From Candidatus Poribacteria bacterium (GTDB lineage: Bacteria; Poribacteria; WGA-4E; WGA-3G): DNA of 64,000 nt. This document shows positions 3,445-24,521 of the stretch, piece after piece (positions within the stretch are counted from its first letter, which is position 1; each line of letters opens with the position of its first letter). The DNA is taken from contig OZ242349.1 in NCBI GenBank assembly GCA_965208635.1, positions 4,925,696 through 4,989,695 of the forward strand. The letters run 5' to 3'. The notes beneath the pieces were generated by a model. The model was given only the letters and a program-made list of their open reading frames with translations. It made no database searches and had not been told where the DNA came from. A program made the translations under genes and the position numbers.

Positions 3445-3472
3445 CCGGTAGGTGCGGTTTCCCAACCGCACC
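3445..3472. repeat. REP-like hairpin CCGGTAGGTGCGGTT-loop-AACCGCACC (family copy 1 of 4)
   Basis: 9-bp perfect stem. The same element occurs at 6865-6891, 17445-17472 and 24494-24521. It sits in a divergent intergenic region, so it is not acting as a terminator here. Confidence 0.5.
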
Positions 3473-3574: not shown

Positions 3575-6500
3575 ATGTTAAATAAAAACACATCCCTAAA
3601 ATCTGGTATCCGAGATAACCTCCTACGTGAAACAGTCCACGATTTTCTACAACAAGAAATTAAGAACGGTTCCGCACTCTCCATCGTCTCCGCCTACTTC
3701 ACCATTTATGCCTACGAAAAGATGCAACACTCCCTGGATAAAATAGAGGAACTCCGTTTTCTTTTTGGGGACCCTGATTTTGTCAAACGTATGGATCCGA
3801 ATAACACAGATACAAAAGCGTTTGATATGACGGATACAGGTCTACAACTCAACCAGCAACTCCGACAGAAACCGATTGCCAAAGCGTGTGCCGAATGGAT
3901 AAACGAGAAGGTAGAAATCCGTACGACCCGCGAATCTAATCTGATACACGGGAAAATGTACCACATCACCAATAACGGCGTTGACAAAGCAATTCTGGGT
4001 AGCTCCAACTTTACGGTGCGCGGACTCGGACTCAGTTCAAATAACAGCAACATTGAACTGAATCTTGAAGTGGATAGCGACCGAGACCGAACCGACCTCA
4101 AGGCGTGGTTTGATGAACTCTGGAATAACGATCAACTCGTTGAAGATGTGAAAAATAAAGTCCTCGCAAAACTGAAGCAGATAGGGCAAGATCACCCACC
4201 AGAACTCGTCTATTACAAAACCCTATACGAACTTTTCCGTGAAGAAATTGAGACCCGACAGACAAACGAACAGACCCTTGAGGATATACATCTATACGAC
4301 ACAAAAATTTGGGGCAAGTTATACGATTTTCAAAAAGAGGGCGCGAAAAGTGTTATTGCTCGGCTGCTGCGACACAACGGTTGTATTTTGGCGGATAGCG
4401 TCGGATTAGGAAAAACATACACTGCACTCGCCGTCATCAAGTTTTTTGAATTGCGAAACGAACGTGTCCTTGTTCTCTGCCCGAAAAAACTCCGCGAAAA
4501 TTGGGCACGCTACCCGGCACATAACTCACAAGCATCCAATGAGTTCCTCGATGATAAGTTCGGATACACCTTACTCTCGCACACCGACCTATCCAGATAC
4601 AGTGGTGATTCTGGCGGTGTCAATCTATCAGATTTCAATTGGCAGAATTTTGACCTGATTGTTATTGACGAATCCCACAACTTCCGAAATGACACCAAAC
4701 CCCGTGAGGACAAAGATGGCAGCTTCCGTCATAGCCGTTATTCCCGCCTATTAGAGGAGGTCATCAAAGAAGGCACAAAAACCAAAGTGTTGATGCTCTC
4801 CGCGACGCCCGTGAATACTTCACTCACTGACCTCCGCAATCAGATATATCTCATGACAGAAAAACGTGAGGATGTCTTTAGAAACAGTTTGGGGGTTAGC
4901 AATATCCGCACTTTAATACGACAGGCGCAAAAAGCCTTCAAGACGTGGGAAGAGAACACCACCAGAGATGGCACAAGAGATAAAACAGAATTATTTAATA
5001 CGTTAGGGGTAGAATTTTTTCAACTCCTCGGCGGCGTTTCTATTGCGCGTTCCCGAAGGCATATCATAAAATACTATGCCGAAGAAATAAAAAAAATTGG
5101 TGAATTCCCTACACAACTCGATCCAGTCAATTGCCATCCACCTACCGATCTGTCAGGCGAACTTTCATATAAAGTGTTGGCGGATCAGATTGGTGATTTC
5201 GAGTTGTCCATCTATAGACCCTCCAGTTACGTTGTAGATGAAACAGCAAAACAGCGGTTAGCAGATGAAAAACAGAAATTCCGTTTCAATCAGGAGGATC
5301 GTGAGAAATTCCTTATCGGTATGATGCAGACCAATTTCCTCAAACGGCTGGAAAGTTCTGCTTACTCCCTTTCCAAAACGCTTGAACGCACCATCAACAA
5401 ACACGATGAAATGCTGGAGAAGATTGACCGCTTCCAGAAAAACCAAAATATAGCAGACGCAGGCGCCGATGTCCTTCCCGATGATGATGAAGACGATGAG
5501 GAATTTTTAATCAATCGTGCCAGAAATCCCTACCATCTAAAAGAATTGGATTGCACCCGCTGGAAACAGGACATCAACCAAGATAAACAGACATTAACCG
5601 CTGTGTTGGAAAAAGTGAAATCCATCACATCAGAACGGGATGGAAAACTGAAAGAGATTAAAAAACACATCCGAGATAAGGTGCTAAATGCAACAAAAGA
5701 TAAGGACGGAAACCCCAATCGCAAACTGCTCATCTTTACCACCTTCAAGGATACGGCAGAATATCTCTATGATCACTTGTCTGAACTCATATCGGAATTA
5801 GGGCTGAATATGGCACTCGTTTCTGGAGATATGACGCGAACGACCTGCGGAGAAAATAAATTCAACGATATTCTTACGAACTTTGCCCCCCGCGCAAGAG
5901 GACGTTCTGAGGACATCAGCGACAACATAGACCTGATGATTGCGACAGACTGTATCTCAGAAGGGCAAAACCTTCAGGACTGCGATACCGTTCTAAACTA
6001 CGATATACACTGGAATCCCGTCCGTATTATTCAACGGTTCGGGCGGATTGATAGGATCGGTAGCAATAATGTCTCAGTCAAGATGATTAACTATTGGCCC
6101 ACAGAAGATATGGAGGTCTATCTCCGTCTACGAAATCGCGTTGAATCCCGAATGGCACTCGCCGATGCCACCGCAAGTGGTGATGACGACCCGTTGAATG
6201 AATGGGCTTACGAACAGGCACAGATGGAACTCAACTTCCGGGACAAGCAGTTGGAGCGGCTCCGCGAAGAGGTACTCGATCTGGATGACCTCTCTGACGG
6301 TGTAGTAATGAGCGACTTTACATTAGATTATTTCTTTGCGCAACTCCTGAAGTATCTCGAAAGAAACAGAGCAAAACTTGAGGCAACATCAGACGGTGCT
6401 TATGCCGTTACCAATAACGAAAACAATCCCTCGGAAAACGGTGTCATCTTCTTTCTCCAACAGACCAACGCCAGCACAAATAAACAGGAAAAAACCGCCA

Positions 6501-6853
6501 GTCCCATCCACCCTTACTACGCCGTTTACATCCGAGACAGTGGGGATATCCGTTACGGGTGTATCAATGCGAAACAGGTGTTGGATCTATTTGAGACATC
6601 TGCCGTTGGGAAAGAGGACGCAATAGATGATTTATGTCTCTGGTTTGACCAAGAGACGGAATACGGCGATAACATGACACATTACAACAAACTTTTAGAC
6701 GCCGTCATTTCGCATATCACACGGTCACATACGAAGACACAAAGCCAAATTTTGAAGAGTGGGAGTCCTCGCGACGCAAAACTGACACCCGCATCCAAAG
6801 CCCCTAAAGACACTGGCGATTTCAAGTTGGTGACATGGCTGATTATCACATGA
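3575..6853 (+). CDS. Fused PLD-family nuclease domain (single HKD motif) plus SNF2-family DEAH-box helicase
   Basis: HGKMYHITNNGVDKAILGSSNFT (HxK...GSxN PLD signature) near residue 125. Helicase motifs: I DSVGLGKT, II DESH, III LSATP, C-terminal helicase domain with QRFGRIDRIG (motif VI). 1092 aa, ATG start. Confidence 0.8.
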   Translation: MLNKNTSLKSGIRDNLLRETVHDFLQQEIKNGSALSIVSAYFTIYAYEKMQHSLDKIEELRFLFGDPDFVKRMDPNNTDTKAFDMTDTGLQLNQQLRQKPIAKACAEWINEKVEIRTTRESNLIHGKMYHITNNGVDKAILGSSNFTVRGLGLSSNNSNIELNLEVDSDRDRTDLKAWFDELWNNDQLVEDVKNKVLAKLKQIGQDHPPELVYYKTLYELFREEIETRQTNEQTLEDIHLYDTKIWGKLYDFQKEGAKSVIARLLRHNGCILADSVGLGKTYTALAVIKFFELRNERVLVLCPKKLRENWARYPAHNSQASNEFLDDKFGYTLLSHTDLSRYSGDSGGVNLSDFNWQNFDLIVIDESHNFRNDTKPREDKDGSFRHSRYSRLLEEVIKEGTKTKVLMLSATPVNTSLTDLRNQIYLMTEKREDVFRNSLGVSNIRTLIRQAQKAFKTWEENTTRDGTRDKTELFNTLGVEFFQLLGGVSIARSRRHIIKYYAEEIKKIGEFPTQLDPVNCHPPTDLSGELSYKVLADQIGDFELSIYRPSSYVVDETAKQRLADEKQKFRFNQEDREKFLIGMMQTNFLKRLESSAYSLSKTLERTINKHDEMLEKIDRFQKNQNIADAGADVLPDDDEDDEEFLINRARNPYHLKELDCTRWKQDINQDKQTLTAVLEKVKSITSERDGKLKEIKKHIRDKVLNATKDKDGNPNRKLLIFTTFKDTAEYLYDHLSELISELGLNMALVSGDMTRTTCGENKFNDILTNFAPRARGRSEDISDNIDLMIATDCISEGQNLQDCDTVLNYDIHWNPVRIIQRFGRIDRIGSNNVSVKMINYWPTEDMEVYLRLRNRVESRMALADATASGDDDPLNEWAYEQAQMELNFRDKQLERLREEVLDLDDLSDGVVMSDFTLDYFFAQLLKYLERNRAKLEATSDGAYAVTNNENNPSENGVIFFLQQTNASTNKQEKTASPIHPYYAVYIRDSGDIRYGCINAKQVLDLFETSAVGKEDAIDDLCLWFDQETEYGDNMTHYNKLLDAVISHITRSHTKTQSQILKSGSPRDAKLTPASKAPKDTGDFKLVTWLIIT

Positions 6854-6864
6854 TTAACCCGTCC

Positions 6865-6891
6865 CCGGTAGGTGCGGTTTTTAACCGCACT
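6865..6891. repeat. REP-like hairpin, copy 2 (GGTGCGGTT ttt AACCGCAC), 12 nt after the helicase stop
   Basis: Read directly; it may also act as a transcript 3' stem-loop, but there is no T-tract. Confidence 0.5.
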
Positions 6892-6928
6892 ATAGGTGTC
6901 AATTTAAGAAAAATTGCATCATGGCATC

Positions 6929-7169
6929 GTAGGTTGGGTTGAACGGGGAATACCAGAGTCCAGTGAATTGAAAGAAACAGTACGCCTTCTCTATACACCT
7001 TCCATTTCAGAGATATGGAGTGAAACCCAACGTCTTTGCGGTTCCCGAAACGCTGCGGGTATGAAGTTGGGTTTCACTCTGTTCTTGGGTATATCCGAGG
7101 CTGTGTTGGATTTCAGGGATATTTGGAACATCGGCATCTGCCTTCTAAGTTCCGTTCAACCCAACCTAC
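6929..7169. mobile_element. MITE-like element (~241 bp) with terminal inverted repeats GTAGGTTGGGTTGAACG / CGTTCAACCCAACCTAC and an internal inverted pair GTGAAACCCAACG / GTTGGGTTTCAC; copy 1 of 2
   Basis: Perfect 16-17 bp terminal inverted repeats; a homologous copy sits at 14726-14957 with shared internal blocks. It lies between the helicase and methyltransferase genes and has no coding potential (ORF 6914..7177 is spurious). Confidence 0.55.
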
Positions 7170-7261
7170 AGTACTAAATTGACACCTATGGTGCAGAAAA
7201 TAATAACATCGGGCGGATAAAGCCCTCCAAAAAGAGGAGTCTGTTATAGGAACACAAAATT

Positions 7262-10200
7262 ATGAACAAAGAAGCAATCAAAGCCGCACTATCCGCAATA
7301 CCGACCGGTGACTTTTTAGAAAAGTCAAAAGACCTGCTCGGCACAATAGGCTACCGCAGTGAACTCACCCTTGAACTTTCCGGCACCGTCCACGACTTTT
7401 TTGACGAATTTCCACCACTCAACCCGAACACCAAAACCGAACAGGAATTCCGAAAACACGCTGAATCCGTGCAACTCGTGTTCCAATTCACAAGCGACGA
7501 AATCGCTGATGATCCACAGGGAACACTTTTTGAATCCGCTTCCTTCGACAAAGGAAACATAAAAAGTTTCCTGTTCTGTGCAGTCGAGCTAAAAGACAAC
7601 AACTATTCCCGCACCAAATACGCCGAGTTCACACGAGAAATCAACAAACGTCTGTTCGCACCCACTGTGATTTTATTTCGCGCCGGTAATCATCTGACAG
7701 TTGCATTTGCCGATCGCCGCCCAGACAAAACCGACGAGGACCGCGATGTGCTCGGACAGGTTACCCTCATCAAAGACATCCGTCTCCACAACCCACACCG
7801 CGCACATTTGGACATCCTCTCTGAACTCTCACTTGAAGCGTGCGTCAAGTGGATAGATGAAAAACAAAAACCGAAAAACTTCGACGGTCTACTGGGGGCA
7901 TGGCTCGCCAAACTGGACACCGAAGAACTCAACAAACAGTTCTATCGAAAGCTGTTCGCGTGGTACGAATGGGCAAGAAAAGAAGCAACGTTCCCGACAG
8001 ACGAAAACCGAATCATAGAACCGGAGGAGCATGTAATACGCCTCATCACACGTCTACTCTTCATCTGGTTTATTAAAGAAAAAGGGTTGGTGGCAGATGC
8101 GTTATTCAACAAATCGCAAATCCAAGACCTACTGGCAGAAGACGATTTTGATACCGGAGATTCCTACTATCGCGCCGTGCTACAGAACCTCTTTTTCGCC
8201 ACATTGAACACCGAAATAGACAAACGTAAGTTTAGCACCGTTGGCTACGCCACAAATCGTGATTTCTCGCGTTACCGCTATAAAGCTCAGATGCCTGACC
8301 CCGATAAACTCTTAGAACTGTTTGACCAAACCCCCTTCATCAACGGTGGATTGTTCGATTGTCTGGATAGTTGGGAAGCGACGGGTCAAGAGAGTTACCG
8401 AATCGACTGCTTTTCTGATAATCAGTACCATAAGTTGTCCATCCCCAACCGTCTCTTTTTTCATATAGAGCAAGGATTGATTCCGTTACTTGAGCATTAC
8501 AAATTCACCGTCGAGGAGAACACACCGATAGAGCAAGAGGTGGCATTGGACCCAGAACTACTCGGCAGAGTCTTTGAAAACCTACTTGCTGCCTACAACC
8601 CGGAAACCGGTGCGACGGTGCGAAAACAGACCGGATCCTACTACACCCCACGTGCTATCGTCGATTATATGGTGGAAGAAGCATTGGTCGCCACGTTATC
8701 CCAAAAATGCGATCCAACCGATGGCGACGCGCAACTCTGGAACGAACGGCTACGCTATCTTCTCGACTATGCCCAAGCCTTTGATGATGCCAACGAATGG
8801 TTCGATGATGCTGAAAAAGATGCCGTTGTCCGAGTAATTTCCGAACTCAAGATATTGGATCCCGCAGTGGGTTCCGGTGCATTTCCTATGGGGATGTTGC
8901 ACAAATTAACCCTCGCATTACGCCGACTTGACCCAGACAACACCCGCTGGGAAAAGTTACAGAAGGAACGCGCGCTCCAACGAGCAGAAATAGCGTTTGA
9001 TACACAAGACGACCCAACGCGGCGTGAAGAACTCATCGAAATCGACGAGACTTTCAAACGCTATCGAGACTCAGACTTCGGACGAAAGTTGTATCTCATC
9101 CAAAATAGTATTTTCGGCATAGACATCCAACCCGTGGCGTGCCAGATCGCCAAACTCCGCTTTTTCATATCCCTTGCCATTGAGCAGGAACCCGAGCAGG
9201 ATACACAGAACTTCGGCATCAAACCGTTGCCAAACTTGGAGACGCGCTTTATCGCGGCAAACACACTGATAGGACTCACAGCACAACGGATGCTGACAAG
9301 TAACACCGCGCGAGATTTGGAACGCGAACTGGGTGACAATCGCGAGCGGCATTTTCATGCGACCACCCGTCAACGCAAACGTGAATATCAGCGAAAGGAC
9401 GAGCAACTGCGATCCGAATTGGCAGCGGAGCTAAAAAGCATGGGCACCCCAGCAGATGATGCCGAAAAAATTGCAAAATGGGATCCGTATGACCAGAATG
9501 CCACCGCCGATTGGTTTGATCCTGAATGGATGTTCGGAGTCATAGATGGATTTGATGTGGTGATTGGCAATCCACCCTACATTAGTCATGATAAAATCCC
9601 AAAACAACTTAAAGCCCAAATCAAGAATCATTACCAATCATACGAGCCATTTGCAGACGTATACTGTTATTTTATTGAAAAAACCTTAGAACTACAGAGT
9701 AAGAGGAGCATTCTTAGTTTCATTACCTCAAATTCGTATTTAAGAGCAGAATATGGAGCACCAACCCGCCGCCTATTGCTAAGTAAAAACATACTACTTA
9801 GAATGTTAAATATTGAGGACTCACAGGTCTTCGAGAGTGCAATTGTTAACGTCGCGATAATTGTGTCTCGTACACCGACCAATTCCACTGATGATTCCTG
9901 CCTTGTTGTTAATTCCCCATTTTCAGGTAATAGTTTCGCCGATTTTGTGAAAATCAATGGCTTTAACTATCCTCAATCATACTTTAACTCAAAGTCATGG
10001 AATCTCGCAGAACCGCAGCTGATTGAACTTCAAAAGAAACTGGAATTATCAGGAAAAACTCTTAAAGAGTTTCAGACGAAAATTAGACTTGGTATTGCTA
10101 CTGGTAGCAACGAAGCTTTTCTCATAAATGAAGATCAAAAACGGGAATTTTATGAGAAAAATCCTGTCAATGCTGAAATCATAAAACCTATTTTGAGGGG

Positions 10201-10813
10201 ACGGGACATTTCACGCTACAGTTACAACCTACCCGGGCAGTATATTCTACTCACCAAAAATGGAGTTAATGTAGAAAGAGATTACCCTGATATACATGAA
10301 CATCTAAAGTCGTTCGGGGATAAGTTCAGAAATCGTGGAGCACAGGGACAACATTGGACTAATTTAAGAGCTTGTTCATTCTATGACGACTTCAAAAAGG
10401 AAAAAATCGTGTGGATCGAATTGTCAGATTTGGGACGATTCGCACTTTGTAATGAGGAAATCTATCTACTCAACTCGGCGTACTTTTTATTACCACCTTT
10501 GGGTATAGACTCAAAATTCCTTCTTGGCATCCTAAATTCAAGCACAATTCGCTTTTACCTGAATCTTGTCGCAGAAACAAGCGGAATGGGAACAAGCCGT
10601 TGGATCAACAATTATGTGAAAGAATTCCCAATACCAATAGTTGCTTATGAACAACAAACTGAAATCATTGAACACGTCGATCAACTTCTTGCGATCAAGC
10701 GCGCTGACTCGGATGCGGACACTTCCAATCTTGAAAATGAGATTGACAAACTGGTATACGCCTTATACGACCTAACCGACGATGAGATTGCGATTGTGGA
10801 GGGAAAAGAATGA
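7262..10813 (+). CDS. Gamma-class N6-adenine DNA methyltransferase, large Type IIG / PglX-like architecture with a possible N-terminal PD-(D/E)xK region and a C-terminal target-recognition region
   Basis: Motif I LDPAVGSGAFPMGML near residue 531, then motif IV VIGNPPYISHD near residue 769. The I-then-IV order defines the gamma class. About 530 aa precede motif I, with a possible D-x12-ELK (SFDKG...AVELK). A 414-aa C-terminal region is markedly AT-rich. 1183 aa. Confidence 0.8.
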   Translation: MNKEAIKAALSAIPTGDFLEKSKDLLGTIGYRSELTLELSGTVHDFFDEFPPLNPNTKTEQEFRKHAESVQLVFQFTSDEIADDPQGTLFESASFDKGNIKSFLFCAVELKDNNYSRTKYAEFTREINKRLFAPTVILFRAGNHLTVAFADRRPDKTDEDRDVLGQVTLIKDIRLHNPHRAHLDILSELSLEACVKWIDEKQKPKNFDGLLGAWLAKLDTEELNKQFYRKLFAWYEWARKEATFPTDENRIIEPEEHVIRLITRLLFIWFIKEKGLVADALFNKSQIQDLLAEDDFDTGDSYYRAVLQNLFFATLNTEIDKRKFSTVGYATNRDFSRYRYKAQMPDPDKLLELFDQTPFINGGLFDCLDSWEATGQESYRIDCFSDNQYHKLSIPNRLFFHIEQGLIPLLEHYKFTVEENTPIEQEVALDPELLGRVFENLLAAYNPETGATVRKQTGSYYTPRAIVDYMVEEALVATLSQKCDPTDGDAQLWNERLRYLLDYAQAFDDANEWFDDAEKDAVVRVISELKILDPAVGSGAFPMGMLHKLTLALRRLDPDNTRWEKLQKERALQRAEIAFDTQDDPTRREELIEIDETFKRYRDSDFGRKLYLIQNSIFGIDIQPVACQIAKLRFFISLAIEQEPEQDTQNFGIKPLPNLETRFIAANTLIGLTAQRMLTSNTARDLERELGDNRERHFHATTRQRKREYQRKDEQLRSELAAELKSMGTPADDAEKIAKWDPYDQNATADWFDPEWMFGVIDGFDVVIGNPPYISHDKIPKQLKAQIKNHYQSYEPFADVYCYFIEKTLELQSKRSILSFITSNSYLRAEYGAPTRRLLLSKNILLRMLNIEDSQVFESAIVNVAIIVSRTPTNSTDDSCLVVNSPFSGNSFADFVKINGFNYPQSYFNSKSWNLAEPQLIELQKKLELSGKTLKEFQTKIRLGIATGSNEAFLINEDQKREFYEKNPVNAEIIKPILRGRDISRYSYNLPGQYILLTKNGVNVERDYPDIHEHLKSFGDKFRNRGAQGQHWTNLRACSFYDDFKKEKIVWIELSDLGRFALCNEEIYLLNSAYFLLPPLGIDSKFLLGILNSSTIRFYLNLVAETSGMGTSRWINNYVKEFPIPIVAYEQQTEIIEHVDQLLAIKRADSDADTSNLENEIDKLVYALYDLTDDEIAIVEGKE

Positions 10814-11235
10814 ATACAGGACTAAAGATTTTCATTACCTATGCCCATAAAAATTCAGAAGCAAAGGACGAATTGATAACCAGCCTTGCCGTCCTGAAGC
10901 AAAACGGATTAATAGATGTCTGGCACGACAACGAAATTCTACCTGGAGACAAATGGCGAGATGAAATTTTCAACAACCTTGCTGATTCGGACATTCTACT
11001 CTACCTTACCTGTCGGTATAGTCTTGCCTCTGAAAATTGCAATAAAGAATTAACTGCTGCGTTAAATCCAAATATAAGAGTGATTCCGATTATCCTTGAA
11101 CATTGCGATTGGCTAAATCACCAACTTAGCGATTTTCAAGCTCTACCGGATAAAGGTAAACCTATTAACGAGTGGCAACCTGAGAGCAAAGGGTGGTTAA
11201 ATGTACTGCCATCGGAAATTTGGACCACTCTCTAA
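10810..11235 (+). CDS. TIR-domain protein, start overlapping the methyltransferase stop (ATGA); 3' end replaced by IS-derived sequence
   Basis: IFITYAHKNSEAKDEL (TIR box 1, F-I/V-S/T-Y/H...D). ...DSDILLYLTCRYSLASENCNKELTAAL matches the S-x-W/N-C-x-x-E-L motif that carries the catalytic Glu of TIR NADases. The last 10 codons (VLPSEIWTTL*) come from the IS left end starting at 11202, so the native C-terminus is lost. Confidence 0.6.
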   Translation: MNTGLKIFITYAHKNSEAKDELITSLAVLKQNGLIDVWHDNEILPGDKWRDEIFNNLADSDILLYLTCRYSLASENCNKELTAALNPNIRVIPIILEHCDWLNHQLSDFQALPDKGKPINEWQPESKGWLNVLPSEIWTTL

Positions 11236-11360
11236 ACCAAGATTGTGATACAATAACAATCTATTTGAAAGGAGCATTCCGATGGCGAAACGCAGAAGAT
11301 TTACCCCCGAATTTAAAGCAGAAGTTGTGCTGGAGGCACTTCGCGGTGAAACTTCCCAAG
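11202..11360 (+). mobile_element. Partial (left-end, 159 bp) copy of the same IS3-family element in inverted orientation relative to the full copy; contains IRL and the first 26 codons of orfA
   Basis: Perfect reverse-complement identity of 11202-11360 to 12363-12521. Confidence 0.7.
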
Positions 11361-12170
11361 AGGTGTCAGATACCCTAACGCCGAATGCAGGCGTTTGAGA
11401 TTATACACCTGTGTGATAAAATGACCGATGCTTTGTCGAGCCTCGGTAATATCTTGATAATCATTGAGGTGGACTTCTTCTTCCTTGAGCGTTCGGATCA
11501 ATCTTTCAGCGTATCCATTCTCCCAAGGACACCCGCGGCGAGCTACCGAAATCTCAACACCGTATGCTTGGAGTGTTGCGATATACGCCTTTGAAAGATA
11601 CTGCACGCCTTGATCGGAATGATGAATCTCCGGAATCCTGTCGTGTAAAGCTTGCTCTAAGGGTTTCAAAGTCAGAGTTTGCGTCAAGTCTTGACTGAGG
11701 TTCCATCCTCGAATCATACGTGTGAAGACATCCATGAGCAGCGCGACATAGATGAAGCGTCTGTTGAGGCGGACGTAGGTGATATCGCCGACCCAGACTT
11801 GATCCTGTCGGGAGATCTCAAGCGTCTGTATTCTATTGACCCACGGGTGTGAACCTTCAAGGGACCTCGTGGTTTGACAGACCCGTTTCACCGAGACCGA
11901 GAGGTTATCTTCTTTCATCAACCGAGCGACGCGTCGATACCCAACAGGGTGTCCTTGATTCACCAACAGTTTGGTGATACGTCGATACCCGTAGGTGGGA
12001 TACCGGGCAGCTAACTGCTGTATGTCTGATCGCAGGACTTCTTCAGACGGGTCGCTTTTGGGGTGATAATAGAGCGTGCTCTTGTTGAAACCCAGCACCT
12101 CGCAAATCAGTCGAACCGAATACCTCGTCCGCAACTCCTCAACGATGCGTCGCTGTTGAGACGGGGTCAA
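11313..12170 (-). CDS. IS3-family transposase OrfB (DDE integrase domain); the reading frame runs about 48 nt past the inferred IS end into the inverted partial copy
   Basis: WVGDITYV...HSDQGVQY...NGYAE catalytic-triad context; C-terminal LHSALGYLTP. Confidence 0.75.
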   Translation of the reverse strand: MTPSQQRRIVEELRTRYSVRLICEVLGFNKSTLYYHPKSDPSEEVLRSDIQQLAARYPTYGYRRITKLLVNQGHPVGYRRVARLMKEDNLSVSVKRVCQTTRSLEGSHPWVNRIQTLEISRQDQVWVGDITYVRLNRRFIYVALLMDVFTRMIRGWNLSQDLTQTLTLKPLEQALHDRIPEIHHSDQGVQYLSKAYIATLQAYGVEISVARRGCPWENGYAERLIRTLKEEEVHLNDYQDITEARQSIGHFITQVYNLKRLHSALGYLTPLGKFHREVPPAQLLL

Positions 12171-12521
12171 TCCAACAATGTCGATGCTTTTTTTTGAATC
12201 TCCATCGCCAGGGTCAACCGTCCAACGAGTTGCTCAAGTTGAGCCACCCGTTCTACGGACTCGCTCGACTGCTTATCCGTAGCGTCAAAGAGCGTCGCTA
12301 TATTTTCAACGACTTGCTGCTTCCACTTTGAGACTTGGTCTGCACTTAGATTATGGTGCCGACACAATTCCGCTTGGGAAGTTTCACCGCGAAGTGCCTC
12401 CAGCACAACTTCTGCTTTAAATTCGGGGGTAAATCTTCTGCGTTTCGCCATCGGAATGCTCCTTTCAAATAGATTGTTATTGTATCACAATCTTGGTTTA
12501 GAGAGTGGTCCAAATTTCCGA
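11364..12521 (-). mobile_element. IS3-family insertion sequence (orfA plus orfB with an A8G -1 frameshift site), about 1.16 kb; left terminus TGTACTGCCATCGG... at 12521
   Basis: OrfA is an HTH/leucine-zipper protein (MAKRRRFTPEFKAEVV...). OrfB is a DDE transposase ending with the ...HSALGYLTP motif typical of IS3 OrfB. Slippery AAAAAAAAG lies at the orfA/orfB overlap (+ strand 12186-12196 TTTTTTTT). The right boundary is inferred from where the inverted duplicate ends and is uncertain by a few nt. Confidence 0.75.
12167..12451 (-). CDS. IS3-family transposase OrfA (HTH DNA-binding)
   Basis: 94 aa, MAKRRRFTPEFKAEVVLEAL... typical IS3 OrfA; overlaps orfB at the A8G slippery site. Confidence 0.8.
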   Translation of the reverse strand: MAKRRRFTPEFKAEVVLEALRGETSQAELCRHHNLSADQVSKWKQQVVENIATLFDATDKQSSESVERVAQLEQLVGRLTLAMEIQKKASTLLD

Positions 12522-14251: not shown

Positions 14252-14725
14252 CAGTAAAGTGATGTATCGCCGGTTTGCAAAATGTTGCACTTTCCGCCAA
14301 ATTATTTTTTTCGCACAGAAAAATCGAATAAAAAAACGCGCCTAAACCCACACACGCATTGGATTCTCAGACAATTTTAGCAAGTTATCCAAAATACAAA
14401 AAAAGTTACCAAATCGTAACTTTTTAGCAAATGAGTTAAAAATAAATTAACGTATGTTATCCATAAAGACTCATTGAAAACCGAGTCTGAAGTTTCAGAG
14501 TAAGCATTTCAGAAATCGCCTATCAAAACCACTCGAAACCCAGTCAGGGTCTATATTCACAACCTTTTTAAAATCCACCCTTCTTTAAATTTTACTCTGA
14601 ATACTCTGAAACTCGCCACATTTTCTTATCCCTATGTCTGAGCCGTGTCTCTGGGATCGCGATCCTATTGACTGCTAACTACTGAATGCTTCTGAAGGGT
14701 GTGTAAATATTTTGTCAAAATCCTG

Positions 14726-14957
14726 TAGGTTGGGTTGAACGAGGCCTGATTGAAGACCTCATAGCGGCGATGATTCTCAAACGCACAAAGCACCTGAACG
14801 CACCAGAATACAAGTGAAACCCAACGCCTTTTCACACCAGCACCGTTTGGGACGTTGGGTTTTGCTATCTCTATTTACACAGAACAGGTCATTGAAATAG
14901 CGGAGTTGCCGGGGGTAAACTCCAGTGTCTTGGTTTTTACCGCTCAACCCAACCTAC
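14726..14957. mobile_element. MITE-like element, copy 2 (same inverted termini as 6929-7169)
   Basis: GTAGGTTGGGTTGAACG ... GCTCAACCCAACCTAC; internal GTGAAACCCAACGCC / CGTTGGGTTTTGC blocks shared with copy 1. ORF 14855..15193 inside it is spurious. Confidence 0.55.
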
Positions 14958-15116
14958 GATTATACCGAATGCCAGAAATTTTACACACCCCTTCTGAACA
15001 AAAAACCTTGAAAAAAGTATCCAAATATGAGATAATGTCTCTTGGAATCAAAATACCATATAGGGCGAAACTTACAGGTTTCCCATTCTACACAAACAAA
15101 GGAGCAAATACACAAG

Positions 15117-17444: not shown

Positions 17445-17472
17445 CCCGGTAGGTGCGGTTTCAAACCGCACT
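17445..17472. repeat. REP-like hairpin, copy 3 (CCCCCGGTAGGTGCGGTTT ca AAACCGCAC), 14 nt after the stop of the 16433 gene
   Basis: Read directly. Confidence 0.5.
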
Positions 17473-21191: not shown

Positions 21192-21293
21192 ATAACCAAA
21201 GCTTGTAAGCCCAAGCAACGCGCCGGGCTGGATATACGTTTAGGCATGTTTTTACTAAGCCTGCCTAAACGAACCGCAAGGAAAATTAAAAAT

Positions 21294-22301
21294 ATGGAAA
21301 CGATTGGAGTTGGTGTTATTGGATGCGGTGGCATGGGCAGAAGCCTTGCCACCAGCGCACACGCTGTTGAGGGAATAGCGGTCATCTCCGTCAGTGATGT
21401 GCAAGAAGCATTGGCTGAAAAACTTGCTACAGACCTTGGTGTGTCCTATACGTTAGACTACCACGAATTACTCGCCGATGATCGGATTCGTGCAGTCCTA
21501 ATCGCGTCACCGCCGTTTATGCACTCACCGATGGCAGTCGATGCCGCGAACGCAGGAAAACACGTTTTTTCCGAAAAACCGATGGCGCCCACGTTGGAGG
21601 CTTGCGACGCTATGATTGCCGCCGCAGAGGATAACGGTGTCAAACTTACCATCGGTTTGGTATGTCGCTATCACGGGACGCATTCCGTTGTTCGCGAAAT
21701 CGTTCAGAGCGGAGAACTCGGTGCCCCTGCCTGTATGATGGTGCATCGCATCGGTGGATCGTGGGGTAGTGGGTATAGTCACACACCATGGCGACTGGAA
21801 CGTGCGAAGTCTGGTGGGACCCTCATGGAAATCAACGCCCACGAAGTCGACTTTATGCGCTGGACCTGTGGTGATGTAACATCCGTCTATGCCGCCGGTG
21901 GACAATACGGACCAGATAAAAGCGACTATCCAGATGTGGTGCTTGCTTCCTTGCAGTTTGCAAACGGAGCAATCGGCTTGCTCCATTCCAGTCATGTCTC
22001 CGCTGTTGGTGGTTATGGCGGACGGGTCGATTGTGAAGGTGGTTCCATCTATTTTCCACAGATATGGGGAGGCGATGCCGCCATCCAGATAAAACCTTTT
22101 GAGGGTGAAGGACGACAGATTAAAGTGGCAGATATTAAGGTGCCGCCGCCGGTTCAAGAAGAGATTCGCGTCTTCGCAGAAGCAATCCGTAACGACACGT
22201 CACCACCTATCACAGGTTTAGACGGTCGCGCCGCCGCTGAAATCGCATTAGCCGCATATCAATCTGTTGAGAGTGGACAACCCGTACCGTTGCCCCTTTA
22301 A
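21294..22301 (+). CDS. Gfo/Idh/MocA family oxidoreductase
   Basis: METIGVGVIGCGGMG Rossmann start; ATG at 21294 after the conserved leader CGAACCGCAAGGAAAATTAAAAAT. The ORF-track ATG at 21246 would add 16 non-Rossmann residues. Confidence 0.65.
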   Translation: METIGVGVIGCGGMGRSLATSAHAVEGIAVISVSDVQEALAEKLATDLGVSYTLDYHELLADDRIRAVLIASPPFMHSPMAVDAANAGKHVFSEKPMAPTLEACDAMIAAAEDNGVKLTIGLVCRYHGTHSVVREIVQSGELGAPACMMVHRIGGSWGSGYSHTPWRLERAKSGGTLMEINAHEVDFMRWTCGDVTSVYAAGGQYGPDKSDYPDVVLASLQFANGAIGLLHSSHVSAVGGYGGRVDCEGGSIYFPQIWGGDAAIQIKPFEGEGRQIKVADIKVPPPVQEEIRVFAEAIRNDTSPPITGLDGRAAAEIALAAYQSVESGQPVPLPL

Positions 22302-22430
22302 TGGCAAGTGGTTTTCTGCTTCTCTTCATAAACATCAAATTGCAAGCCCGTAATGAAATGGAGGGCGGATCTACGGCAGGGGACGTGAACGCTTAACCCC
22401 CTTGAACGAACCGCAAGGAATAATTAAAAC

Positions 22431-23369
22431 ATGAAAATTTCAGTCTGGGACGGTGGACTTTCAGATAGCTACCTCAAACAGGTCACACAACTCGGGGCAG
22501 ACTGTATCGACTTCGGAGGCGGTAACGCCTTTCCCGGGGTCGAAGAACAAGGTTACCCGGATTTGGATGAGGTCCTGAAAATCAAAAAACGGATCCGATC
22601 CTGGGGACTCGACATCAACCGTGTAACACTCCCGAATATCACAGAAAAGTTTATGCAGGGTCAACCCGATGGTGAAAAAGAATTAGAGAACACCTGTAAT
22701 GCCCTCCGGGTTTTCGCAGAAGCCGGCGTCCCTATCGCACGCCAAAGGTTTTGGGGTGATACATTTGACTACCTCATGACGCGTTATTCATCCGTACATA
22801 GGGGCGGTTACACCTCCCGTGGCGAAAGCCGCGCCGCAACCCAAAATCCACCACCGACACCGACGATGGAAGCCCTTGACGAGTGGTGGAAACGTTTCAC
22901 CGAAATCTACGGAGCACTCGTTCCTATCGCCGATGAATACGACATTAAACTCGCTATCCATCCATCAGACGTGCCGAATCCTGATACACCGCTCGGCAGT
23001 CTCGGATTCCACCGTGTCACCGATACCTTTCCCAGCAGGAACGTGGGCTATCTCTATTGTTGCGGCACTCGGGCGGAAGCCGGTGGCAGTGCGATTGTCC
23101 TTGACGAAATCAATAACTACGGACGTAAAGGGCGTATCTTCATGGTTCATCTACGGAACGTCCGCGGTAGCCTGGCAACAGCCGGAGCGTTTGAGGAAGT
23201 CCTGCTTGACGATGGTGATATGAATGCTTTCAAAATCGTCCGAGAATTACAAAAGGTCGGATTTGACGGATGCATCAACGCCGATCACATCCCGAAATTG
23301 GAAGGCGATGTTGGATTAGCTTACTCCGTCGGCTACATCAAGGCACTGTTCGCGGCACTGGCGGCATAA
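22431..23369 (+). CDS. Xylose-isomerase-like TIM-barrel protein (possibly UxuA/mannonate-dehydratase-like)
   Basis: ATG directly after the same CGAACCGCAAGGAATAATTAAAAC leader; weak family-level resemblance only. Confidence 0.4.
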   Translation: MKISVWDGGLSDSYLKQVTQLGADCIDFGGGNAFPGVEEQGYPDLDEVLKIKKRIRSWGLDINRVTLPNITEKFMQGQPDGEKELENTCNALRVFAEAGVPIARQRFWGDTFDYLMTRYSSVHRGGYTSRGESRAATQNPPPTPTMEALDEWWKRFTEIYGALVPIADEYDIKLAIHPSDVPNPDTPLGSLGFHRVTDTFPSRNVGYLYCCGTRAEAGGSAIVLDEINNYGRKGRIFMVHLRNVRGSLATAGAFEEVLLDDGDMNAFKIVRELQKVGFDGCINADHIPKLEGDVGLAYSVGYIKALFAALAA

Positions 23370-24493: not shown

Positions 24494-24521
24494 TCGGTAG
24501 GAGCGGTTTCTAACCGCTCCG
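24494..24521. repeat. REP-like hairpin, copy 4, variant GGAGCGGTT tct AACCGCTCC with a compensatory stem change
   Basis: Read directly; the T-to-A change in the left arm is matched by an A-to-T change in the right arm relative to the other three copies. Confidence 0.5.

Follow-up and report, generated by a model that had tools for sequence, protein, structure and literature searches.

A 64-kb stretch of Candidatus Poribacteria DNA (hereafter the window) contains two non-coding elements of about 235 bp, one of which (copy 1) separates a helicase gene from a methyltransferase gene in a defence locus, while the other (copy 2) lies further downstream. We propose, with a probability of roughly 0.87, that both are repeats of the repetitive extragenic palindrome (REP) type, arranged as inverted doublets (REPINs) and dependent in trans on a RAYT (REP-associated tyrosine transposase), an enzyme of the HUH/Y1 kind. 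The system is of a known type but new to the phylum, and it is atypical in its expanded loop of ~70 nt and in the fixed heterodimers that its units form. The evidence lies in the anatomy of the elements, their copy number and extragenic placement, the lack of target duplication, the covariation between the head and tail of each unit, the adjacency of units to RAYT genes in four genomes and a presence/absence polymorphism. The repeat unit is termed REP1 here, and L-numbered loci (L001, etc.) denote DNA fetched from other genomes.

Anatomy of the two elements

A first-pass annotation of the window had described the elements as two copies of one family resembling miniature inverted-repeat transposable elements (MITEs), at 6929–7169 and 14726–14957, with perfect terminal inverted repeats of 16–17 bp and an internal inverted pair. 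Copy 1 lies exactly as described, and copy 2 does end at 14957 but begins at 14725, one base earlier. The termini of copy 1 are perfect inverted repeats of 18 bp (GTAGGTTGGGTTGAACGG / CCGTTCAACCCAACCTAC), whereas those of copy 2 extend over 17 nt with one mismatch (GAAC vs GAGC) and are thus imperfect. The internal pair is present in both, spanning 17 nt with 94% complementarity in copy 1 (7018–7034 / 7063–7079) and 10 bp in copy 2 (14817–14826 / 14853–14862). Each element has four conserved sites, with the core GTTGGGTTKMAC in alternating orientation, and when the copies are aligned in either orientation these four short sites are all that they have in common, the interiors being unrelated and essentially unalignable. 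Each copy is also surrounded by an outer inverted repeat of its own, absent from the first-pass annotation (6878–6906/7175–7203 for copy 1 and 14697–14717/14970–14990 for copy 2).

Both elements were confirmed as real, beyond chance. The 16-mer GTAGGTTGGGTTGAAC, with up to three mismatches, occurs four times in the window against 0.46 expected, a count reached by none of 100 shuffles, and the 8-mer GTTGGGTT occurs eight times against 2.17 expected, with all eight occurrences inside the two elements. A profile hidden Markov model (HMM) of the unit matches exactly four units in the window, two in each element (Table 1). The elements are non-coding; an 87-aa open reading frame (ORF) with a TTG start overlaps copy 1. 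A literature search with the 12-mer AACCCAACCTAC returned only unrelated primer matches. Integron attC-like sites (GTTRRRY/RYYYAAC) and CRISPR-like sites were considered, and were dropped once the unit structure and the link to RAYT had emerged. A cyanobacterial origin of the window, raised by a HIP1-like sequence (GCGATCGC) near 14660, was rejected because all close matches are to Poribacteria; the neighbouring window genes are ~80% identical to Poribacteria contigs.

The half-element is the basic unit

The apparent terminal repeats and the internal inverted pair arise because two units stand tail to tail, with their GTAG heads outermost. The unit is ~105 nt long: its head reads GTAG-GTTGGGTT-GA-[A/G]C, its tail G[T/C]-GA-AACCCAAC, and ~70 nt of loop separate the two; 197 of 210 units measure 90–110 nt. 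A map of core sites in the fetched loci contains many lone pairs of head and tail ~90 nt apart, together with head-to-tail tandem arrays (L092, L121 and L105; for example, B>B>B> and E<E<E<E<E< in L092). Within a unit, position 3 of the head co-varies with position 2 of the tail: among 136 units the combinations A–T (88), G–C (35), A–C (1) and G–T (0) were counted (Fisher 4e-30), the remaining 12 being mismatched (A.A 10, T.C 1, A.G 1). No such matching exists between the two heads of a dimer (A/A 33, A/G 18, G/A 15, G/G 1), and the variable position differs in 33 of the 68 dimers. It is because the head and tail of one unit co-vary, the heads of a dimer do not, and units occur both singly and in arrays, that the half-element is taken as the unit. 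The change from A–T to G–C is compensated between head and tail, the units are imperfect palindromes as REPs are, and the G–C state also recurs in the short units of cyanobacteria.

Folded as single-stranded DNA, each unit closes through the 8-bp stem and, beyond a tandem GA/AG mismatch, two further pairs; the loops contribute little stability. The pairing between the termini on which the first-pass annotation had focused is not what is conserved; it is a side effect of two units facing apart. The folds also bear on the suggestion that the elements are a structured non-coding RNA gene or a cis-regulatory RNA, the long nested helices being the functional feature. Whole elements do fold very stably relative to shuffled sequences (z −9.2 and −6.2), and in some flanks the outer helix can be extended with pairing of the U–G type. 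Folded singly, however, three of the four window units are no more stable than shuffles, and the outer helix is not kept by compensation. Moreover, Rfam 15 gave no match in the window at the gathering score, with only sub-threshold noise at E up to 1, and an RNA gene would have to be reconciled with many copies per genome, at least four loop subfamilies with loops ~35–40% diverged, and the link of the units to RAYT. An RNA gene is accordingly considered extremely improbable.

Dispersal and placement

A pattern of three of the conserved sites was scanned over reference genomes, one genome per species. Further copies of the kind that the first-pass annotation had anticipated were found at no fewer than 111 loci, so that its own refuting condition, which included a lack of further copies, does not hold; among the matches listed, nearly all are in metagenome-assembled genomes (MAGs) of Candidatus Poribacteria, with a few cyanobacterial loci and one Desulfatirhabdium MAG. 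Single chromosomes carry at least 8–11 loci. The 68 non-redundant full elements that were extracted (213–243 bp) are all tail-to-tail dimers, and none lies inside an open frame of at least 600 nt, compared with 62% under random placement. Target-site signatures, which had also been expected, are lacking: flanking direct repeats occur at the level of chance (4/70 at k = 2, with 4.4 expected, and 0/70 at k = 4 to 8).

Bacterial MITEs, such as Nezha of cyanobacteria, are small, non-coding, dispersed elements with inverted ends that are moved by a transposase acting in trans. A classical MITE in the window would be the deletion derivative of a DDE-type insertion sequence (IS), moved via the inverted repeats at its termini, and the internal pair would give the transposase additional places to bind. 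Inverted ends of 17–18 bp, a size of ~235 bp, a dispersed intergenic distribution and a nearby IS3 transposase gene are all in keeping with such an origin. It does not, however, agree with the lack of target duplication, with ends of one element that fail to co-vary and in roughly half the dimers do not match, or with half-elements that occur alone and in tandem arrays. Nor was any DDE gene bounded by REP1 ends found in ~0.9 Mb of fetched loci (at least 111 loci), the sole bounded gene being that of the Y1/HUH RAYT. REP1 elements thus differ from elements such as Nezha in having neither target-site duplication nor DDE parent, in ends that are independent REP heads, and in halves that can propagate alone. 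What stands of the first-pass assignment is that these are dispersed, non-coding and non-autonomous repeats; the class was wrong, and the MITE explanation, already largely refuted, is very unlikely to be correct.

Placement differs between related genomes. In L023 a dimer lies between the orthologs of the window genes at 21246–22301 and 22431–23369, which in the window are separated by a 129-bp spacer without a dimer. A similar C–D dimer with similar flanks is found in L011 (6886–7094, ~73% DNA identity), and from this resemblance is probably orthologous to window copy 2. Comparison of L117 with L112 as a clean empty site was rejected, several segments having been replaced. The window (22335–22385) and L023 (about 1000–1050) have in common a conserved motif between genes, AAATTG(C/T)A(A)GCCCGTAATGnAATGGAGGGCG..CTACGG, which in the window adjoins the site of the L023 dimer; it starts with AAATTG like the tail of the second REP family described below (REP2), ends in CTAC, and may represent another REP-like family. 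In the Desulfatirhabdium MAG (L006, 4316–4630), which is labelled deltaproteobacterial, short REPs are identical to the cyanobacterial type (GTAGGTTGGGTTGAGGCACGAAACCCAAC), which could reflect either horizontal transfer or a binning error.

A probable cognate RAYT

The E. coli RAYT, TnpA_REP, checked over its full length against PDB 4ER8 (E 1e-118), was used as a tblastn query against all fetched DNA. This identified three Poribacteria ORFs (L017, L092 and L110; E about 1e-38 to 1e-41, 43–46% identity), all of which adjoin REP1 units. The L017 frame directly follows a dimer, the L092 frame has unit arrays on both sides, and the L110 frame is flanked on both sides by dimers, one unit there being short-looped (GTAGGTTGGGTTGAACGATAGTGAAACCCAAC). 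In a fourth Poribacteria genome (L121) long-loop units flank the RAYT on both sides. The L092 protein scores 198.6 bits against the NCBIfam equivalog model NF047646 (REP_Tyr_transpos, cutoff 80) and also passes Pfam Y1_Tnp, and it aligns with TnpA_REP at the HUH motif and at the catalytic Tyr. A homolog search gave a Poribacteria RAYT clade at 68–94% identity, followed by cyanobacterial proteins at 62–67%, several of them named REP-associated tyrosine transposase by NCBI; the closest RAYT relatives outside Poribacteria are cyanobacterial. A cognate transposase with matching repeats, as the first-pass annotation had envisaged, is thus present in that REP1 units flank a RAYT in four genomes, but it belongs to the HUH/Y1 and not to the DDE class. 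No paper describing RAYT systems in Poribacteria was found in a literature search. By analogy with known systems this RAYT would mobilise the REP1 units, and the genome from which the window derives presumably encodes one of its own.

The L092 locus also contains a source of annotation error, since its REP1 tandem arrays (5620–5961 and 6941–7890) yield long spurious ORFs with peptide repeats such as RSTQPT, FNPTY and AQPNL. Spurious proteins of this type are likely to be mis-annotated in MAGs.

Subfamilies, fixed heterodimers and the age of the copies

Clustering of 206 units gave four major loop subfamilies, A (38), B (48), C (37) and D (31), plus minor ones. The dimers are fixed heterodimers, A–B in 29 cases and C–D in 21, with a few F–H and F–G. 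As copies 1 and 2 of the window belong to different dimer families (A–B and C–D), they share recognition sites only, and their grouping as two copies of one MITE-like family was imprecise.

The interiors of the 68 elements reach a consensus of 40–70%, while the four sites are nearly invariant. Three of these sites are fixed by the search pattern, so the fourth, which is unconstrained, was measured separately: this site, which includes CTAC, is perfectly matched in 131 of 171 cases, with 98% identity per nucleotide where present. All 213 collected ends (213/213) begin with GTAGG because the collection searched for GTAGGTTGGGTTGA, and the fourth site provides the independent test of the tag. Within a subfamily, loop identity is ~60–69%. 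Continued interaction with RAYT, or a function for the host, may account for how strongly the recognition sites are conserved.

A host function is central to the view that the repeats are domesticated, the window copies being immobile and kept for a hairpin role (3′-end mRNA stabilisation, attenuation between helicase and methyltransferase, or binding of nucleoid proteins), with RAYT as a maintained single-copy partner and not a selfish transposase. Such a role is compatible with REP/RAYT repeats and does not exclude them. It would fit core sites that are ~98% conserved beside drifted loops, a similarity within genomes that about equals that between genomes, the similar C–D dimer and flanks of L011 and the position of REP2 hairpins just past stop codons, and RAYTs have been argued to behave like vertically inherited single-copy genes (PMC5581495). 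On the other hand, presence/absence differences among close relatives and tandem amplification beside RAYT point to ongoing turnover, and a consensus scan of the gap that holds copy 1 gave no promoter-like or terminator-like signal. Domestication is therefore viewed as possible but rather unlikely.

Several observations weigh against the assignment to REP/RAYT systems or limit its reach. The covariation between head and tail tracks subfamily lines and so represents few independent events, and the exact-core search pattern inflates the apparent conservation at three of the four sites. REP1 units exceed classical REPs by a wide margin and fall outside the classical size range. By tblastn there is no RAYT within the 64-kb window, the cognate enzyme being known from related genomes only. 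No empty site is similar enough to fix the exact insertion junctions, the intergenic DNA of the window and L023 being too diverged at ~80% identity. Finally, dispersed copies within one genome have a loop identity of 61–69%, against 58–64% between genomes; most copies look old, and any recent transposition would be conjectural.

Comparison with known REP systems

The features of REP/REPIN–RAYT systems found here are a GTAG tag, a stem-loop, high copy number with extragenic placement, doublets and clusters, a flanked RAYT (in related genomes) and the lack of target duplication. Among the closest known systems are the REPs of E. coli, their bacterial interspersed mosaic elements (BIMEs) and the RAYT TnpA_REP (YafM; PDB 4ER8). 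There, too, G follows a 5′ GTAG tag, the palindrome is imperfect and has an obligatory mismatch close to the loop, units alternate in orientation within mosaics that include other motifs, location is extragenic, copy number is high and REPs flank their own RAYT gene; judged by sequence identity, the Poribacteria RAYT would resemble the E. coli-type group among the RAYT groups (PMC5581495). The differences are that the Poribacteria unit is ~105 nt with a variable loop, against about 35 nt in E. coli, that the stem sequence is not the same, and that the dimers are fixed heterodimers of loop subfamilies; the Poribacteria system is also known from sequence alone.

In Pseudomonas fluorescens, dispersed copies likewise take mainly the form of the inverted doublet and not of the single REP, the RAYT gene has doublets and clusters at its sides, and there is no target duplication (Bertels & Rainey, 2011; PMC3116915). 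The Poribacteria doublets differ in their size of ~230 bp and in that their halves are non-complementary outside the 17–18-bp sites, so that there is no single continuous long hairpin.

The cyanobacterial GTAG REPs (Di Nocera et al., 2013; PMC3733652) agree with REP1 in tag and stem (GTAGGTTGGGTT...AACCCAAC), which are identical, and in the tandem GA mismatch. The families GTAG-12/15/16 of that study serve for comparison, as putative carriers of the exact REP1 stem. Tags and stems of the REP1 type occur in Leptolyngbya, Limnoraphis, Tychonema and Coleofasciculus loci, and ordinary REPs of 29–30 nt with the same GTAG-GTTGGGTT...GA-AACCCAAC stem stand on both sides of the RAYT of Coleofasciculus (L122). 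Published REP units measure 20–40 bp with loops of 2–20 nt (PMC3733652, Table 1), and cyanobacterial units 29–32 nt (rarely 49), as against ~100 nt in Poribacteria. The sampled Poribacteria loci hold 204 long-loop units and one short unit, whereas cyanobacterial and other loci have short units almost exclusively.

Neighbouring repeats

The window contains a second, short classical REP family, REP2, all copies of which are on the plus strand and most of them just past stop codons (Table 1). The REP2 module, in which the tail ATAGGTGTCAATTT often follows the hairpin, adjoins REP1 dimers in L001, L004, L011, L012, L028, L031 and L062; of all REP1 dimer ends, ~16% have this tail no more than 90 nt away. 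The outer inverted repeat of copy 1, formed by this tail, was considered as an integral part of the element and rejected; because the tail is near only ~16% of ends, the repeat is instead interpreted as a BIME-like juxtaposition of two REP families. In L069 (5440–6200) a REP2-related hairpin (GTTCGGTT stem, same tail) flanks a different, Y1-like protein of 163 aa (5579–6070, minus strand) with a tblastn match to TnpA_REP (E 8e-7); the protein is possibly a second RAYT.

A third inverted-repeat motif (GGGTGTGTAAAnnTTT ... AAAnTTTACACACCC) surrounds copy 2 and occurs also in L112 (3607–3625 / 4035–4052), where it brackets a non-coding segment of ~430 bp directly after the helicase stop, and in L011 (about 7100–7138). 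It could represent a further small mobile element, or the sequence that received the C–D dimer.

Table 1. Repeats in the window and the two genes that border copy 1.
Feature	Position	Strand	Basis or remark
REP2 hairpin GTAGGTGCGGTTTCCCAACCGCAC, upstream of helicase gene	3448..3471	+	second REP family
PLD(HKD)-nuclease + SNF2 helicase	3575..6853	+	PADLOC HKD+Snf2, candidate C3a139, E 2.5e-109
REP2, short classical REP of second family, GTAG-GTGCGGTT-TTT-AACCGCAC, tail ATAGGTGTCAATTT	6868..6905 (hairpin 6868–6890)	+	15 nt after helicase stop
Copy 1, REP1 tail-to-tail heterodimer A> 34-nt spacer B<	6929..7169	.	repeat finder + nhmmer unit profile
REP1 unit, subfamily A	6929..7031	+	nhmmer unit profile E 7e-15; GTAG head, 8-bp stem GTTGGGTT/AACCCAAC, tandem G.A/A.G mismatch, 2 further pairs, ~70-nt loop
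REP1 unit, subfamily B, inverted, head at 7169	7066..7169	−	nhmmer unit profile E 1e-15
Inverted REP2 tail (AAATTGACACCTAT) + decayed REP2 half; right arm of copy-1 outer inverted repeat	7175..7203	−	29 nt, 83% complementary
Eco57I/TaqI_C N6-adenine methyltransferase, type IIG-like	7262..10813	+	flanks copy 1
Left arm of copy-2 outer inverted repeat (GGGTGTGTAAA...), third repeat motif	14697..14717	+	also in L011, L112
Copy 2, REP1 tail-to-tail heterodimer C> 28-nt spacer D<	14725..14957	.	repeat finder + unit profile
REP1 unit, subfamily C (GAAC...GTGA type)	14725..14825	+	unit clustering + unit HMM
REP1 unit, subfamily D (GAGC...GCAA, compensated G–C variant)	14854..14957	−	covariation, clustering, unit HMM
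Right arm of copy-2 outer inverted repeat	14970..14990	−	repeat finder
REP2 hairpin, 18 nt after stop of 16433–17431 gene	17449..17471	+	second REP family
REP2-like hairpin GTAGGAGCGGTTTCTAACCGCTC, compensated stem variant	24497..24519	+	HMM scan

The helicase–methyltransferase gap

The 408 bp between the helicase stop and the methyltransferase start are made up of a REP2 hairpin, copy 1 and an inverted partial REP2 tail, much as the first-pass annotation had it, and the small hairpin that it had named a REP is indeed one. The same annotation supposed that the two genes had once been contiguous. For comparison of the gap, homologs of the methyltransferase at 86–93% identity were traced to their contigs. 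In L113 (93%) the gap is only 42 bp and free of repeats, so the repeat mosaic of the window is a lineage-specific fill, and the two genes were, on this comparison, probably once adjacent. In L112 (93%) the gap is 1384 bp and includes the A–B dimer nearly base for base, with the same right flank as in the window; the left ~1 kb is different and holds a 129-aa gene. Unrelated filler occupies the gap in L117 and L118 (92%, 225 bp), in L120 (88%, 211 bp) and in L119 (86%, 818 bp), where it includes a PDDEXK_3 gene bounded by another inverted-repeat element. Judged from these sequences, the junction is a hotspot of intergenic turnover or insertion.

A different repeat, with ends like CTGAATC.../TGTCAGAATCGCGGAGAGCGCGGAG, is found in the gap of relatives (L119 3680–4500, L120 4290–4500 and L114 4960–5000), and it is this repeat that brackets the L119 PDDEXK_3 gene.

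It had further been suggested that copy 1 uncouples the two genes transcriptionally or carries a promoter for the second. A scan of 6700–7400 for sigma-70 promoters and intrinsic terminators gave no support to this, with 0 sites, although the consensus models may not fit Poribacteria, the promoters of which are uncharacterised; any effect of REP1 on transcription would be a presumed one.

The surrounding defence island (3575–11235) consists of the HKD(PLD)+SNF2 helicase, the methyltransferase and a 141-aa ThsB-like TIR protein, the gene for which starts within the end of the methyltransferase gene, overlapping its stop. In relatives the gene after the methyltransferase varies, encoding a TPR protein, a 574-aa protein of unknown function or other TIR proteins. 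Directly downstream of the TIR gene, on the minus strand at 11313–12451, is the IS3-family transposase (orfA HTH_Tnp_1, orfB rve), to which a related sequence in L053 is 73–77% identical.

Proposed mechanism and significance

By analogy with E. coli TnpA_REP (discussed in PMC3733652) and the IS200/IS605 enzymes, the Poribacteria RAYT would bind the hairpin of a unit in single-stranded DNA, read the GTAG tag, and cut and rejoin there, at the GTAG/CT site. By such reactions units and doublets would spread through, or be maintained in, the DNA between genes, with no duplication of the target. The BIME-like mosaic that fills the gap between helicase and methyltransferase in the window consists of copy 1 and the REP2 hairpin.

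A more far-reaching proposal would be that the Poribacteria units are a distinct, loop-expanded class of REP, in which the ~70-nt loop is a freely evolving payload between stem halves recognised by RAYT. Conservation of the sites despite 35–40% loop divergence would then reflect selection at the level of the host, and the REP–RAYT pair would be not selfish but a domesticated system for structuring the genome or processing transcripts in sponge symbionts, acquired from or shared with cyanobacteria. This is regarded as speculative and quite unlikely.

For genome annotation, the results correct a trap: long-loop REP doublets mimic MITEs with terminal inverted repeats, and their fake ORFs (xRSTQPT-like peptides) pollute MAG annotations. 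For the defence locus, they identify the helicase–methyltransferase junction as a hotspot of turnover between genes. More broadly, they extend REP/RAYT systems to Candidatus Poribacteria, an uncultivated phylum of sponge symbionts. The combination of one RAYT clade and one recognition stem with 29-nt units in cyanobacteria and ~105-nt units in Poribacteria amounts to a natural experiment on what RAYT recognition needs; apparently this is the tag, the 8-bp stem and the GA mismatch, with the length of the loop left free.

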